Assembly: GCF_041886205.1 (NCBI RefSeq)
Contig: NZ_CP169029.1
Reading direction: 5' to 3' (one strand)
Source: Escherichia coli
Lineage (GTDB): Bacteria; Pseudomonadota; Gammaproteobacteria; Enterobacterales; Enterobacteriaceae
DNA: 64,000 nt
Shown here: in pieces, positions 1-7,474 of the stretch
How the letters are laid out: each line of letters begins with the position of its first letter
How positions within the stretch are numbered: the first letter of the stretch is position 1
Notes under the pieces: generated by a model
The model's database searches: none
What the model was told of the DNA's origin: nothing
What the model saw: only the letters and a program-made list of their open reading frames with translations
Made by a program: the position numbers and the translations under genes

Positions 1-2043
1 CATACAACCGATGCTGCAGGCTCAGCTCGTGCCGCCAGCACGTCAGCCGGACAGGCTGCATCATCTGCTCAGTCAGCATCTTCCAGCGCAGGAACGGCAT
101 CAACAAAGGCCAGTGAAGCATCGAAAAGTGCTGCTGCTGCAGAGTCCTCAAAAAGCGCGGCGGCCACCAGTGCCGCTGCGGCGAAAACGTCAGAAACGAA
201 TGCGGCAGCGTCACAACAATCAGCAGCCACTTCTGCATCCGCCGCGACCACGAAGGCGTCAGAAGCTGCCACCTCAGCCCGGGATGCGGCGGCCTCAAAA
301 GAGGCGGCAAAATCATCAGAAACGAGCGCAGCCTCGAGCGCCAGTAGTGCAGCCTCCTCGGCAACAGCGGCAGGAAATTCCGCGAAGGCGGCAAAAACGT
401 CCGAGACGAACGCTAAGTCTTCTGAGACGGCAGCAGCACAGAGTGCCTCCGCAGCAGCAGACTCAAAAACAGCGGCTGCCTCATCTGCCAGCGCCGCGTC
501 AACAAATGCCGGGCAGGCCTCAGCCAGTGCCACCGCCGCCGGAAAATCGGCAGAAAGTGCTGCATCGTCCGCTTCAACAGCCACAACGAAGGCTGGCGAA
601 GCCGCTGTACAGGCCAGCGCAGCAGCGAGGTCTGCTTCCGCAGCGAAGACATCCGAGACGAACGCGAAAGCGTCGGAAACCAGCGCAGAATCCTCAAAAA
701 CGGCTGCCGCATCGTCCGCCAGTTCGGCGGCGTCATCGGCATCATCGGCGTCTGCTTCAAAAGATGAGGCGACCAGACAGGCGTCAGCAGCAAAGGGCAG
801 CGCCACGACGGCATCCACGAAGGCGACAGAGGCAGCTGGCAGTGCGACGGCGGCAGCTCAGAGCAAAAGTACGGCGGAATCCGCGGCAACGCGCGCCGAG
901 ACAGCGGCAAAACGGGCAGAGGATATTGCATCCGCCGTGGTGCTTGAGGATGCGAGCACGACGAAAAAGGGGATAACCATGCCACAGGCGAGTTCTGTTG
1001 TTTCAATTACGTTGATTGGTGGTGCGGGATTTAACGTGGGGTCACCTCAACAGGCAGGTATATCTGAACTTGTTTTGCGTGCAGGTAATGGTAATCCGAA
1101 GGGGATTACTGGTGCTTTATGGCAGCGCACATCGACAGGGTTTACAAATTTTGCCTGGGTCAATACATCTGGTGATACTTACGATATTTACGTTGCAATC
1201 GGAAATTATGCGACTGGTGTAAATATTCAATGGGATTATACCAGTAATGCCAGCGTGACGATTCATACGTCACCAGCATATTCTGCTAATAAGCCGGAAG
1301 GGTTAACGGACGGTACAGTTTATTCACTCTATACGCCATCAGAGCAGTTTTATCCGCCTGGCGCACCAATCCCGTGGCCATCAGATACCGTTCCGTCTGG
1401 CTATGCCCTGATGCAGGGGCAGACTTTTGACAAATCTGCATACCCGAAACTTGCAGCCGCTTATCCGTCAGGCGTGATCCCTGATATGCGTGGCTGGACG
1501 ATTAAGGGCAAACCCGCCAGTGGTCGTGCCGTATTGTCTCAGGAACAGGACGGCATTAAATCGCACACCCACAGCGCCAGCGCATCCAGTACGGATTTGG
1601 GGACGAAAAACACATCGTCGTTTGATTACGGAACCAAATCCACGAATAACACCGGGGCGCATACCCATAGTATTAGCGGGACTGCAAATAGTGCCGGTGC
1701 GCACCAACACAAGAGTTCCGGTGCATTTGGTGGCACGAACACGAGCATTTTCCCTAATGGTTATACCGCGATTTCAAATCTAAGCGCGGGGATTATGAGC
1801 ACAACAAGCGGTAGTGGCCAGACTCGTAATGCAGGGAAGACATCATCAGATGGTGCTCATACCCACTCGCTGTCCGGCACTGCTGCAAGCGCAGGCGCAC
1901 ATGCACATACTGTCGGTATTGGTGCTCATACGCACTCCGTTGCGATTGGTTCACATGGACACACCATCACCGTTAACGCTGCTGGTAACGCGGAAAACAC
2001 CGTCAAAAACATCGCATTTAACTATATTGTGAGGCTTGCATAA
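1..2043 (+). CDS. stfQ: Side tail fibre protein, 5'-partial (continues upstream of window)
   Basis: Frame 1 is open from base 1 to the TAA at 2041-2043; Ala/Ser/Thr-rich repeats (AKTSETNA-like) then His-rich HTHS/AHxH C-terminal motifs typical of lambdoid Stf; the ORF track 937..2043 is the C-terminal part of this frame. Confidence 0.85.
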
Positions 2044-2618
2044 TGGCATTCAGAATGAGTGAACAACCACAGACCATAAAAATTTATAATCTGCTGGCCG
2101 GAACTAATGAATTTATTGGTGAAGGTGACGCATATATTCCGCCTCATACAGGTCTGCCAGCAAACAGTACCGATATTGCACCGCCAGATATTCCGGCAGG
2201 CTTCGTGGCTGTTTTCAACAGTGATGAGGCATCGTGGCATCTCGTTGAAGATCATCGGGGAAAAACCGTCTATGACGTGGCTTCCGGCGACGCGTTATTT
2301 ATTTCTGAACTCGGTCCGTTACCGGAAAATGTTACCTGGTTATCGCCGGAAGGGGAGTTTCAGAAGTGGAACGGCACAGCCTGGGTGAAGGATACGGAAG
2401 CAGAAAAACTGTTCCGGATCCGGGAGGCGGAAGAAACAAAAAACAACCTGATGCAGGTAGCCAGTGAGCATATTGCGCCGCTTCAGGATGCTGCAGATCT
2501 GGAAATTGCAACGGAGGAAGAAATCTCGTTGCTGGAAGCATGGAAAAAGTATCGGGTATTGCTGAACCGTGTTGATACGTCAACTGCACAGGATATTGAA
2601 TGGCCAGCACTGCCGTAG
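2043..2618 (+). CDS. tfaQ: Tail fibre assembly protein (191 aa)
   Basis: ATG overlaps the stf stop (TAATG); protein [16 protein letters not shown]... matches the Tfa family. Confidence 0.9.
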
Positions 2619-2715
2619 GGTAAAACATATAAATTCTATAATTAGATGTATCTTTCCATTTACGGCAAGGAAGGGGGCTTGGAACACGTAAAGCATCTCA
2701 CACCGAGATTATTTT

Positions 2716-3306
2716 TTATATGTCAGGTGTCTGAAGTTTTGCTTTGGCTCTTAAAATGGTTTGCCGCGAGGTTTTGAATTCCCGGGCAATGGCACTTATA
2801 CTTACACCTGACTTAATTCGTTCGAATACCACCTGTTTCTGTTCTTCATTTAACACAGGTGGTCGACCAAAACGTTTCCCTGCGCCGCGGGCTCTTACTA
2901 TCCCGGAATGAGTGCGTTCAAGTAAAAGGTCTCGTTCAAATTCAGCGACTGCTGAAATTACTTGCATCATCATTTTTCCTGTTGGACTGGTCAGGTCAAT
3001 GCCACCCAATGCTAAGCAATGCACTCTGATACCTGTTTCGGTCAGTTGTTCCACTGTTTTCCTGATATCCATTGCATTACAACCAAGGCGATCCAGTTTT
3101 GTCACAATCAATTGATCACCACATTTCAGGCGAGCAAGCAACCGGTTAAAACCAGGACGCTCACTGGTTGCTGCTGAGCCGCTAATGTGTTCTTCGATTA
3201 TTTGCTGAGGTTTGATTTTAAAACCTGCACTTTCGATTTCCCGGCGTTGATTTTCGGTGGTCTGATCCAGCGTTGATATCCGACAGTAAGCAAAAATTCG
3301 AGACAT
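2716..3306 (-). CDS. pinQ: Serine recombinase / DNA invertase (Pin/Hin/Gin family, 196 aa)
   Basis: N-terminal resolvase fold [15 protein letters not shown] with catalytic Ser context, C-terminal HTH; convergent with stf-tfa. Confidence 0.9.
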
Positions 3307-3623
3307 AGTGAGACTCTATTCGAAATTGGTGTTCATATCATAATGCATCTCAGAAAATAATTATGATTATTTTTGTGCATATTTGTATGTACACGTTCGA
3401 AAATAAACGAATGCGTATGCAACCCCGTAATTTTTGGTGAGACCCAAAATCGATTTTGTGAAAAATGGCTTTAACTTGGTTTGTTTTTCGAGTTCCGGGC
3501 GGGCTCAAGGAAGAAGAATAGTGTTGCGTGTTATTTTAACCAGATTTCAAGTTGTTTGGACGTGGAAAAGTGGAGCAAAATGTTGTTAAAGTGGAAAAAT
3601 GATAAAAAAGTAAGTTTATTATA

Positions 3624-3857
3624 TTACATTTTACCATTTAAATTTTGGTTGTCTTTAAGAACTGATATCGCTGTTTGTAATAATTCTTTGTTATCCAGCC
3701 ATGATTTTTTCTTTATGTTTCCTTCAATGTAATCAAGCAATGTTCTGGTATTAATAGGTCTTCCCTGTTTTGCTACTTCCACTACAGCATCCCCTAGGAT
3801 AATTCTTACTTCAGGAAGCTGCGCAGGGAACCACTTAAGGGTGTCTTTTGATTTCAT
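3624..3857 (-). CDS. ydfK: Small prophage protein YdfK/YnaE family (77 aa)
   Basis: ORF track 3624..3890; start placed at the internal ATG 3855-3857, which has an AAGGAA Shine-Dalgarno 8 nt upstream. Confidence 0.75.
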   Translation of the reverse strand: MKSKDTLKWFPAQLPEVRIILGDAVVEVAKQGRPINTRTLLDYIEGNIKKKSWLDNKELLQTAISVLKDNQNLNGKM

Positions 3858-4642
3858 GAAGATATTCCTTAAAATATTATTGATTTTCATTGCGATATTG
3901 TATGTCTGATTCAGGATATGTTGACTTATACATCGGTTTTGTCTGGGTTATTGGATATGCCAATCCCTAATTTTATTAGGGCATGACTAAAAATGCTGAA
4001 TATGATAAGGAGAGAAGTGATTATCAGTATGCTGTTCATATAGCCTCGAATTAGTAATGTGTTATATATGATATAGTTGACAATTTTTATCTTGGGTGTT
4101 TTTAAAGTTCGTAGATAAACATTGTCGTTTCAGGTATACAGGAATGCTAGCAGGTGGCAGCAAAAATCAGGCGGTTTATGGCGCAAGCTGAAGCGGCAAC
4201 TGCAAACTATCTTATGCAGAGACTCTACACGGATTGGGTTTAAAAGTATACATAGATAACAGTTTTTATCTGAAAAAGAAAAATATCAAGGTGATATAGC
4301 CTATATGCCTTTGATGCGGAGGAATGACTGTGATGGGAGTGATGTATCTGAATAGTTGAAAAAACGCAGACACGCCTTATGCAAGAACGTGCTGCGGTTG
4401 GCTGGTAAATTTTTCGATAGTGTGAGTATTGAATGATTTCCAGCCGTTCTTGATTTTACGCATAAATCCATGAAAAAACTACTTATCTGTTGGGGAGTTT
4501 TTTTGGGGCATATATGGGACAGAAATAGGCCCCAGATAGACACTGAGATCGAACTTAGGATGCTTTTTAAAAAATGCAACTATCTGAAAAAACCTAGAAA
4601 ACGCCAAGGAAACCACAGGATGGGAAAAAACACCTGTGAATT

Positions 4643-6013: not shown

Positions 6014-7474
6014 ATGGGAAATAATTTGTTATCAGCAAAAGCGACGCTCCCTGTTTATGATCGTAATAACCTAGCTCCAAGAATTGTTCATTTAGGCTTT
6101 GGTGCATTTCACCGTGCGCATCAGGGTGTGTATGCCGATATTCTTGCTACGGAACATTTCAGTGACTGGGGATATTATGAGGTCAACTTAATCGGCGGCG
6201 AACAGCAAATTGCCGATTTACAACAGCAAGATAATCTTTATACCGTTGCGGAAATGTCGGCCGATGTGTGGACGGCTCGCGTTGTTGGCGTCGTTAAAAA
6301 AGCCTTGCACGTACAGATAGATGGCTTAGAAACCGTGTTGGCAGCGATGTGTGAACCGCAAATCGCGATTGTCTCTCTGACAATCACCGAAAAAGGGTAT
6401 TTCCACTCTCCGGCGACCGGACAGTTAATGCTCGATCACCCGATGGTAGCTGCCGACGTGCAAAATCCCCACCAGCCGAAAACAGCAACAGGGGTGATTG
6501 TTGAGGCGCTGGCTCGCCGTAAAGCGGCAGGACTTCCCGCATTTACCGTCATGTCATGTGACAACATGCCAGAAAACGGTCATGTTATGCGTGACGTTGT
6601 CACTTCCTACGCACAAGCCGTTGATGTAAAACTGGCACAATGGATCGAAGATAACGTGACTTTCCCATCAACAATGGTGGACCGTATTGTGCCCGCAGTG
6701 ACAGAGGATACGCTGGCGAAAATCGAACAACTTACCGGTGTGCGCGATCCTGCGGGCGTTGCCTGTGAACCTTTCCGCCAGTGGGTAATAGAAGATAACT
6801 TTGTTGCCGGACGTCCGGAATGGGAAAAAGCGGGAGCCGAACTGGTTAGCGATGTGCTGCCTTATGAAGAGATGAAGTTGCGCATGCTCAACGGCAGTCA
6901 TTCATTCCTGGCGTATCTGGGGTATCTTGCAGGATATCAGCACATTAATGACTGTATGGAAGATGAACATTATCGTTATGCGGCGTATGGCTTGATGTTG
7001 CAGGAACAAGCGCCGACGTTGAAAGTGCAGGGCGTTGATTTGCAAGATTACGCTAACCGATTAATTGCACGCTATAGCAACCCGGCGTTACGTCATCGAA
7101 CCTGGCAGATTGCGATGGATGGTAGCCAGAAATTGCCACAGCGGATGTTGGATTCTGTTCGCTGGCATCTGGCGCATGACAGCAAGTTCGATCTGCTGGC
7201 GCTGGGCGTCGCGGGTTGGATGCGTTATGTCAGTGGTGTTGATGAACAGGGAAATCCGATAGAAATCAGTGACCCACTGTTACCTGTTATTCAGAAGGCT
7301 GTACAAAGTAGTGCCGAAGGGAAAGCGCGCGTCCAGTCATTGCTGGCGATTAAGGCGATCTTTGGTGATGATTTGCCAGACAATAGTTTGTTTACTGCAA
7401 GAGTGACGGAAACGTACTTGTCTTTATTAGCGCATGGCGCGAAAGCGACCGTGGCAAAATATTCCGTGAAGTAA
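6014..7474 (+). CDS. ydfI: Mannitol/mannonate dehydrogenase-family oxidoreductase (486 aa)
   Basis: [10 protein letters not shown] dinucleotide-binding N-terminus, long-chain mannitol dehydrogenase family; RBS present. Confidence 0.9.

Follow-up and report, generated by a model that had tools for sequence, protein, structure and literature searches.

Among described side tail fibres, that of phage Ur-lambda offers the closest structural account of the protein considered here. A cryo-EM and cryo-ET study published in 2025 recognises in Ur-lambda gpStf a collar domain at residues 1-91, a proximal coiled coil at residues 102-393, a hinge at residues 394-422 and a distal domain; it resolved a trimeric bundle for the proximal ~120 residues, and in its cryo-ET data the side fibres have the form of rigid rods with a hinge (PMC12617516). 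The long proximal rod is thus an established feature of this type of fibre. The corresponding region of lambda also carries an annotated frame on the opposite strand, orf206b (lambdap90, GenBank J02459), which lies antisense to orf-401. The product is still listed as a hypothetical protein in a table of PMC10695390, a genome-wide CRISPRi study placed it among the non-essential hypotheticals, its knock-down causing no plaque defect, and no function for orf206b is on record. An antisense ORF has stood in the lambda record for decades.

The locus examined here occupies the beginning of a stretch of 64,000 nucleotides from Escherichia coli (contig NZ_CP169029.1 of assembly GCF_041886205.1), referred to as the window. 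Frame 1 of the plus strand is free of stop codons until 2041-2043, and positions 1-2043 (+) hold the 3' part of stf, the side tail fibre gene, namely its last 680 codons (codons 144-823) and the stop. Positions 1-2700 are a 100% match to E. coli strain wlxctx60 (NZ_AP045833.1), where the start of stf lies 429 nt upstream of the point corresponding to the first letter of the window, such that position 1 is codon 144 of a full protein of 823 aa. The assignment to stf made in the preliminary description is upheld by this match to an annotated genome and by the Pfam domains PF08400, PF07484 and PF03335. The annotation of wlxctx60 places a truncated J gene and lom upstream of stf, and tfaQ, pinQ, ydfK and an interrupted ydfJ downstream. 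Within the window, tfaQ, encoding the tail fibre assembly chaperone, follows at 2043-2618 (+; PF02413, E = 4e-43) and pinQ, encoding a serine invertase, at 2716-3306 (-; PF00239 and PF02796), each bearing that name in the annotation of the matching genome. The order J-lom-stf-tfa that typifies Stf, with a Caudo_TAP chaperone gene directly 3', is found in the annotation of two loci. These genes mark the right-hand end of a defective lambdoid prophage of the Qin type, located at ydfJ. No inversion sites resembling gix, cix or hix were found near the stf-tfa-pin genes, the four hits in the window being the number expected by chance and all lying far from the genes.

The protein shares the overall plan of lambda Stf, with the same gene family and the same J-lom-stf-tfa gene order. 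The N-terminal collar domain (PF08400, phage_tail_N) covers residues 1-134 of the full wlxctx60 gene product (E = 3e-71) and is encoded upstream of the window; it is nearly identical to the lambda-type N-domain, for which a PDB chain matches residues 1-94 (E = 7e-51). At the other end, positions 1309-2040 (+) encode the receptor-binding tip, a collar domain (PF07484, Collar) with a needle of HxH repeats (PF03335), homologous to the tip of T4 gp37, as is the C-terminal tip of lambda-type Stf. Chain A of the T4 gp37 tip structure (PDB 2xgf) matches the last 244 residues of a full-length Stf allele (E = 9e-83). Between these domains lies the Ala/Ser/Thr-rich stretch that is the main subject here, hereafter the rod, which begins at approximately residue 98-114, upstream of the window, and whose part within the window spans positions 1-948 (+; Stf residues 144-459). 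The rod DNA is ~84% identical to that of lambda and keeps the same heptad register, the window rod being longer than the lambda rod by 105 aa (15 heptads) in one gap. The preliminary description had placed positions 1-930 in the N-terminal region of Stf; they encode residues 144-453, and so belong to the central shaft, which comes after the N-domain of residues 1-134.

The window copy departs from lambda in two further respects, as it resides in a defective prophage with a truncated J gene and has lost the hinge and Phage_fiber_2 region. Alignment to the 987-aa Stf allele of strain LSN03-016011/A reveals an in-frame deletion of 492 nt (164 codons) relative to most relatives, with its junction at 974-977 (+) and with only the dinucleotide TA shared by the deletion ends at the DNA level. 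Of the three PF03406 (Phage_fiber_2) repeats that Pfam detects in the 987-aa allele, the window allele retains none, since the deletion has taken them out, and the proximal and distal parts of the window Stf are accordingly joined with no Phage_fiber_2 or hinge region between them. The window stf is a deletion derivative and not a member of a different family. The 164 codons were lost just after the rod, on top of the decay of the prophage.

The rod owes its low complexity to three residues, as Ala (123), Ser (79) and Thr (37) account for 75% of the 320 codons of positions 1-960 (38, 25 and 12%, respectively). Its periodicity is strict. Self-identity of the protein peaks at each multiple of seven residues up to 56 (z = 7-10; 7.2-9.9) and at no other lag, while self-identity of the DNA, compared with codon-shuffled controls, peaks at each multiple of 21 nt (z = 3.0-5.9); the same DNA test on a control stretch, positions 961-1890, shows no 21-nt periodicity. 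Repeat families found by seed extension are likewise spaced by multiples of 21 nt. The repeat unit is therefore one of seven residues (21 nt) of the form x-Ala-x-x-Ser-Ala-Ser/Thr, with the consensus [A/S/E]-A-[A/S/K]-[T/S]-S-A-[S/T] over ~50 heptads that proceed without a break in phase. In the table of heptads, Ala occupies position 2 in 46 of 47, Ser position 5 in 35 of 47 and Ala position 6 in 32 of 47. A position-specific score finds one unbroken register from residue 114 to residue 456 (343 residues), and composition-matched shuffled rods yield nearly no register calls (mean 0.4 per 360 residues).

The self-comparison of positions 1-930 proposed in the preliminary description thus bears out the presence of repeats, with peaks at multiples of 7 aa and 21 nt, although the eight-residue unit AKTSETNA that it had put forward does not hold. 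This octamer occurs exactly only three times (181-204, 391-414 and 643-666, all +), each instance amounting to one heptad and one residue, along with the variants AKSSETSA (307-330, +) and AKASETSA (664-687, +) read directly from the sequence. The members of this repeat family (D2) share 66-79% of their DNA and are spaced by 126, 84, 252 and 21 nt. At the DNA level the repeat copies are old: the best internal match is 65 nt at 72% identity, and Tandem Repeats Finder applied to positions 1-2100 returned no array, just two trivial hits of 9 nt. The periodicity of the rod is visible only as an autocorrelation or a protein pattern.

Heptad periodicity, conserved putative a and d positions and the scarcity of phase breaks are the features of a coiled coil, and helical secondary structure is predicted as well. 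AlphaFold2, run on residues 92-470 of Stf as a monomer with an alignment of 10 sequences, places 357 of the 379 residues in helix (residues 95-296 and 304-459; mean pLDDT 70). The monomer folds back on itself at residues 297-303, where pLDDT falls to ~40, and this fold-back is treated as a probable artefact of modelling a single chain, a similar artefact having been reported with AlphaFold3 by the Ur-lambda authors (PMC12617516). Periodicity, register and helix prediction together describe the long proximal coiled-coil rod that follows the N-domain in Stf proteins. The Ala/Ser/Thr stretch is very probably the proximal alpha-helical coiled-coil shaft of a lambda-type Stf, with the additional open frames discussed below as by-products of its composition.

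In the proposed arrangement, the heptads would fold into one long α-helix, and three chains would associate into a parallel coiled-coil rod by homology with Ur-lambda Stf, the suggestion of a parallel trimer for the window rod drawing on the cryo-EM, cryo-ET and AlphaFold3 work on that phage. At ~0.15 nm per residue, 343-364 residues would give a rod ~50 nm long, which may serve to set the receptor-binding tip at a distance from the tail. Within each heptad, the a/d core would presumably be made up of the invariant Ala (position 2) and the Ser (position 5). A core of Ala and Ser is unusually small for a coiled coil.

In a contrasting interpretation there is no structured rod at all, and this low-complexity stretch would serve as an intrinsically disordered linker. 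Such an interpretation draws on the 75% content of Ala, Ser and Thr, on the fact that no Pfam family covers the stretch and on one database record that names a homologue as a 'PPE-repeat protein'. It is nonetheless extremely improbable when set against a seven-residue phase that holds strictly over ~50 repeats and has Ala as the second residue in 46 of 47 heptads, a register kept across distant relatives, helix predicted throughout and the rigid appearance of the Ur-lambda side fibres in cryo-ET (PMC12617516).

The coiled-coil shaft is a widely distributed element. Of 5426 complete E. coli genomes, 4070 contain the rod DNA of the window, some with as many as seven copies. When the ranked list of 4208 matching E. 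coli records was sampled at even intervals, nearly all of the sampled matches aligned over 960 of 960 nt as a single ungapped piece at 88-96% identity. The sharing among lambdoid prophages anticipated in the preliminary description is thus confirmed, and extends to T5-like fibres. That description had also envisaged a comparison of repeat number with stf paralogues of the same genome; the 64-kb window holds no second stf detectable by blastn or tblastn, and K-12 StfR together with other records took the place of such paralogues. StfR of the Rac prophage (b1372, 1120 aa) has a rod of the same length and register as that of the window (residues 114-457 and 114-456, respectively) at 93-94% nucleotide identity and with no indels. 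Rac StfR and other Qin-type Stf proteins at ydfJ have the same arrangement of tfa, pin and ydfK/ynaE downstream. The difference between StfR and the window Stf lies in the distal domains (1120 aa compared with 823 aa), the window allele being devoid of PF03406 repeats.

The long or L-shaped tail fibres of T5-like phages (T5 pb1/ltf, and that of phage Cyrano, a homologue of P1 S) contain the same Ala/Ser/Thr heptad rod with its register unbroken, and the relationship is evident even in DNA, at 89.6% identity over 814 nt for the Cyrano tail fibre and 79.5% over 117 nt for T5 ltf. These fibres differ from Stf in bearing an unrelated N-terminal attachment domain and other distal domains (Gp34_trimer, Peptidase_S74 chaperone). 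Some unannotated proteins, 2.5-4.4 thousand residues long, also contain the rod, split into several segments.

Length variation of the rod is limited and quantised. Among the 120 closest database proteins, the first of two anchors was located in 93 and both in 78, and the distances from anchor to anchor (359, 345, 331, 254 and 247 aa) are all congruent modulo 7, the exceptions being two singletons of 330 and 356 aa. In a set of 150 representatives taken at 50% identity, rod length varies from ~50 to ~345 residues while the register relative to the collar domain is kept; among those with a rod in more than one segment, a shift is seen only in P0185. Rare changes of length by whole heptads would leave the distal domains in register with the N-terminal collar domain.

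An alternative, in keeping with the preliminary description of the repeats as hotspots of recombination and length variation, is that such a rod could be a hypervariable, VNTR-like contingency locus in which frequent changes of copy number, by slippage or unequal crossing-over, tune the length of the fibre. The length classes do differ by whole heptads (2, 4, 15 and 16), mismatches are distributed patchily along the rod in a manner that suggests gene-conversion tracts, and the rod contains or adjoins mosaic joints with fibres of Stx-phage, T5-like and P1-S-like types. The DNA itself speaks otherwise, as Tandem Repeats Finder detects no array and the best internal repeat, at 72% over 65 nt, is too diverged for slippage or RecA-dependent misalignment. 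Moreover, the rods of StfR, Turner, Kati and ev099 equal that of the window in length and register at 92-96% identity, and the ungapped 960-nt alignments of nearly all sampled E. coli matches extend this constancy to 88-96% identity. Neither DNA copies capable of misalignment nor a copy number that varies among close relatives, the hallmarks of a tandem-repeat locus, are found here, and the contingency-locus reading is a very unlikely one. A hotspot of length variation fits poorly with K-12 StfR and nearly all sampled genomes having the same rod length at 4-12% nucleotide divergence, and slippage is at odds with the divergence of the DNA copies. Length classes do exist, few in number and heptad-quantised. 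A literature search on where the Stf rod recombines in nature yielded engineering papers alone, none with anything specific on the rod. The rod is a widely shared module, at or within which mosaic joints fall; its length is stable, changed rarely and by whole heptads, and it is not a slippage-prone repeat.

The same composition that builds the coiled-coil shaft also gives rise to long open frames beside that of stf. The preliminary description counted all three forward frames and one reverse frame as open for hundreds of codons; this is true of frames +1 and +2, but frame +3 contains six stops, and the open reverse frames are two (69-818 and 413-1006). These counts were compared with two kinds of shuffle, one preserving codon usage and the other preserving the Stf sequence while permuting synonymous codons. 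Over positions 1-960, frame +2 has no stop (open 1-973; 0.3-1.3 expected) and holds an Arg/Pro/Gln-rich ORF of 321 codons at 11-976 (+). The reverse -2 phase has two stops (0.9-1.7 expected) and holds an Ala/Asp/Val/Phe-rich ORF of 249 codons (262 between stops) at 69-818 (-), in the phase of lambda orf206b. In the reverse frame in phase with the stf codons, where every Ser TCA codon of stf becomes a stop in the reverse complement, the 24 stops seen are the 24 expected. Frame +3 contains stops at 114, 345, 414, 423, 765 and 945, six against an expected ~12, with a longest open run of 113 codons, and the reverse -3 phase contains one stop against an expected 7-8, leaving an antisense ORF of 197 codons at 413-1006 (-) that is not conserved.

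For frames +2 and -2, the stop counts fit both shuffles, and their openness is simply that expected. The second position of stf codons in the rod, which is the first base of the +2 codons, is C in 68% and T in 1.6%, and the first position is G in 50%. The dominance of GCN, TCN and ACN codons leaves almost no possibility of a stop in frame +2 or in the antisense phase with the same wobble position as stf, and the long ORFs of +2 and -2 are attributable to this codon composition of the rod. The stop depletion expected of an overlapping gene is accordingly absent from +2 and -2, and is present nominally in +3 and -3 (p ~0.01 and 0.002, respectively).

The shortfall in +3 and -3 arises from a depletion of NNT|ANN codon junctions, of which five are seen against 14.3 expected, the deficit residing mainly in xCT|A (1 of 29). 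This depletion persists in all homologues, and the same bias, weaker, affects the other ORFs of the window (37 ORFs; ratio 0.72). Allowing for that background leaves an adjusted p of 0.014, before any account is taken of the five frames compared or of the common ancestry of the repeats. The shortfall was considered and rejected as evidence of coding, since background genes share the junction bias. These genes match it only in part, and pure composition is not the whole story for +3 and -3.

Where the window and its homologues differ, the substitutions lie overwhelmingly at the third position of stf codons, the counts at positions 1/2/3 being 5/5/32, 6/9/48 and 12/13/51, with synonymous to non-synonymous ratios in that frame of 29:10, 45:14 and 46:23. 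In a six-frame comparison, the Stf translation (frame +1) is conserved at 94-97%, compared with 81-90% for both +2 and -3, and the stops of the -3 phase lie at different positions among homologues (gene nt 593, 677, 842, 1097 and 1337). The overlapping ORFs behave as composition artefacts, as had been proposed from the sequence at the outset; the shuffle expectations, the substitutions in the stf frame and the unconserved -3 stops all agree with that proposal.

The antisense -2 ORF warrants separate consideration, as it is the counterpart of lambda orf206b. The two lie on the same strand and in the same phase, share their stop (gene nt 498) and have translations that are 66% identical over 204 residues, orf206b being shorter than the window ORF because the lambda rod is shorter. 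It is conceivable that ORF 69-818 is a genuine overlapping gene, kept by selection, for a heptad-periodic, amphipathic protein rich in Ala, Asp, Val and Phe. The frame is open from gene nt 498 to at least 1287 in seven of seven homologues examined, its translation is 93-96% conserved, as much as that of Stf, and the frame has been annotated in lambda and predicted in phage ev099 by gene-finding software. This high conservation is geometric, however: the third position of the antisense codons is the wobble base of the sense codons, and a six-frame comparison cannot discriminate -2 from stf for this reason. Nor is there any depletion of stops, two being present where Stf-preserving synonymous shuffles expect 0.9.

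A more pointed argument for such a gene came from a test of antisense constraint on eight sequences, in which four-fold sense sites lying in antisense two-fold boxes vary at 21%, compared with 45% for the other four-fold sites (raw p = 0.004-0.005). Stratification by the neighbouring codon removes the contrast, with sites before ACN (antisense four-fold) variable at 10%, sites before AAR (two-fold) at 12% and only sites before GCN elevated, at 54%. On these grounds the raw signal was not taken as evidence of purifying selection on the antisense strand, and is read as a probable effect of sequence context. The ORF has no conserved start, and its lambda counterpart, as noted, is without a function on record and without a plaque defect on CRISPRi knock-down. 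A selected overlapping gene thus carries very little probability, and the -2 ORF is best treated as an artefact of rod composition, given that it displays no excess openness, conserved start or reported function. Were such a gene real, its wobble overlap with stf would let it persist unnoticed across the family.

The central findings on this locus are already known and hold little new biology; their use lies in annotation and in the engineering of fibres. Ala/Ser/Thr heptad rods give rise to spurious ORFs of considerable length on either strand, which are at times chosen by gene callers over the true frame. In the record of phage ev099, for example, the place of the 5' part of stf is taken by a pair of 'hypothetical proteins' read from the antisense strand in the -2 and -3 phases. 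For fibre engineering, the relevant feature is a single heptad register that runs from the collar domain to the hinge, and the natural length variants, which differ by whole heptads, suggest that chimeras and changes of length be made in multiples of seven residues.

Relative to the 987-aa allele carried by most of its close relatives, the side tail fibre gene stf in the window bears an in-frame deletion of 492 nt, with its junction at window 974-977 and the lost DNA corresponding to positions 6976-7467 of the comparison record L002. This deletion removes all three Phage_fiber_2 (PF03406) repeats along with the start of the distal domain, and the only sequence common to its two ends is a TA dinucleotide. 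It occurs in just one of the 15 best genome matches, that of E. coli wlxctx60 (L001), and in this genome the prophage is heavily decayed, retaining only a C-terminal fragment of J (L001:4470-4838) and a Rz-like DUF2514 gene broken into pieces (L001:1897-2320). The window stf cannot be a component of a functional tail. Adjoining stf-tfa is pinQ (window 2716-3306), an intact serine invertase gene beside which lies a single Sv-tfa set; no gix/cix/hix-like crossover site was found in window 900-2720 together with pinQ, which appears to be an orphan invertase that has no invertible segment to act on.

Within the Ala/Ser/Thr heptad rod of Stf, codon junctions of the form NNT-ANN are depleted (5 seen in window 1-960 vs 14.3 expected), more strongly than in the window's other genes (ratio 0.72). 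The depletion extends to the homologous rods of L003-L008, with 1 junction against 17.9 expected in Cyrano, and xCT-A is the junction type most strongly affected in the rods. No such depletion exists in the second half of stf (42 vs 44.5 expected). The effect is explained only in part.

Rod segments also occur in seven very large, unannotated proteins of 2496-4436 aa (P0194, P0200, P0216, P0225, P0232, P0241 and P0252), each bearing 4-12 separate segments of approximately 35-215 residues that differ in register and are divided by non-rod stretches; P0232 and P0194 had no Pfam matches.

The translation of the antisense ORF at window 69-818 (minus strand) has a heptad period of its own and is amphipathic, with Ala/Val/Phe/Leu and Asp/Glu/Ser taking turns along it. 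The cause is codon complementarity, through which Ser becomes Asp/Glu, Thr becomes Val and Lys becomes Phe/Leu, and this pattern may explain the good gene-finder scores of the ORF. The public record of phage ev099 (L007; LR597635.1) offers an actual example in which compositional antisense ORFs were picked by a gene caller in place of stf: two minus-strand 'hypothetical proteins' are annotated over the rod (2998-3201 and 3177-3860), while stf codons 1-455 are left without a forward CDS.
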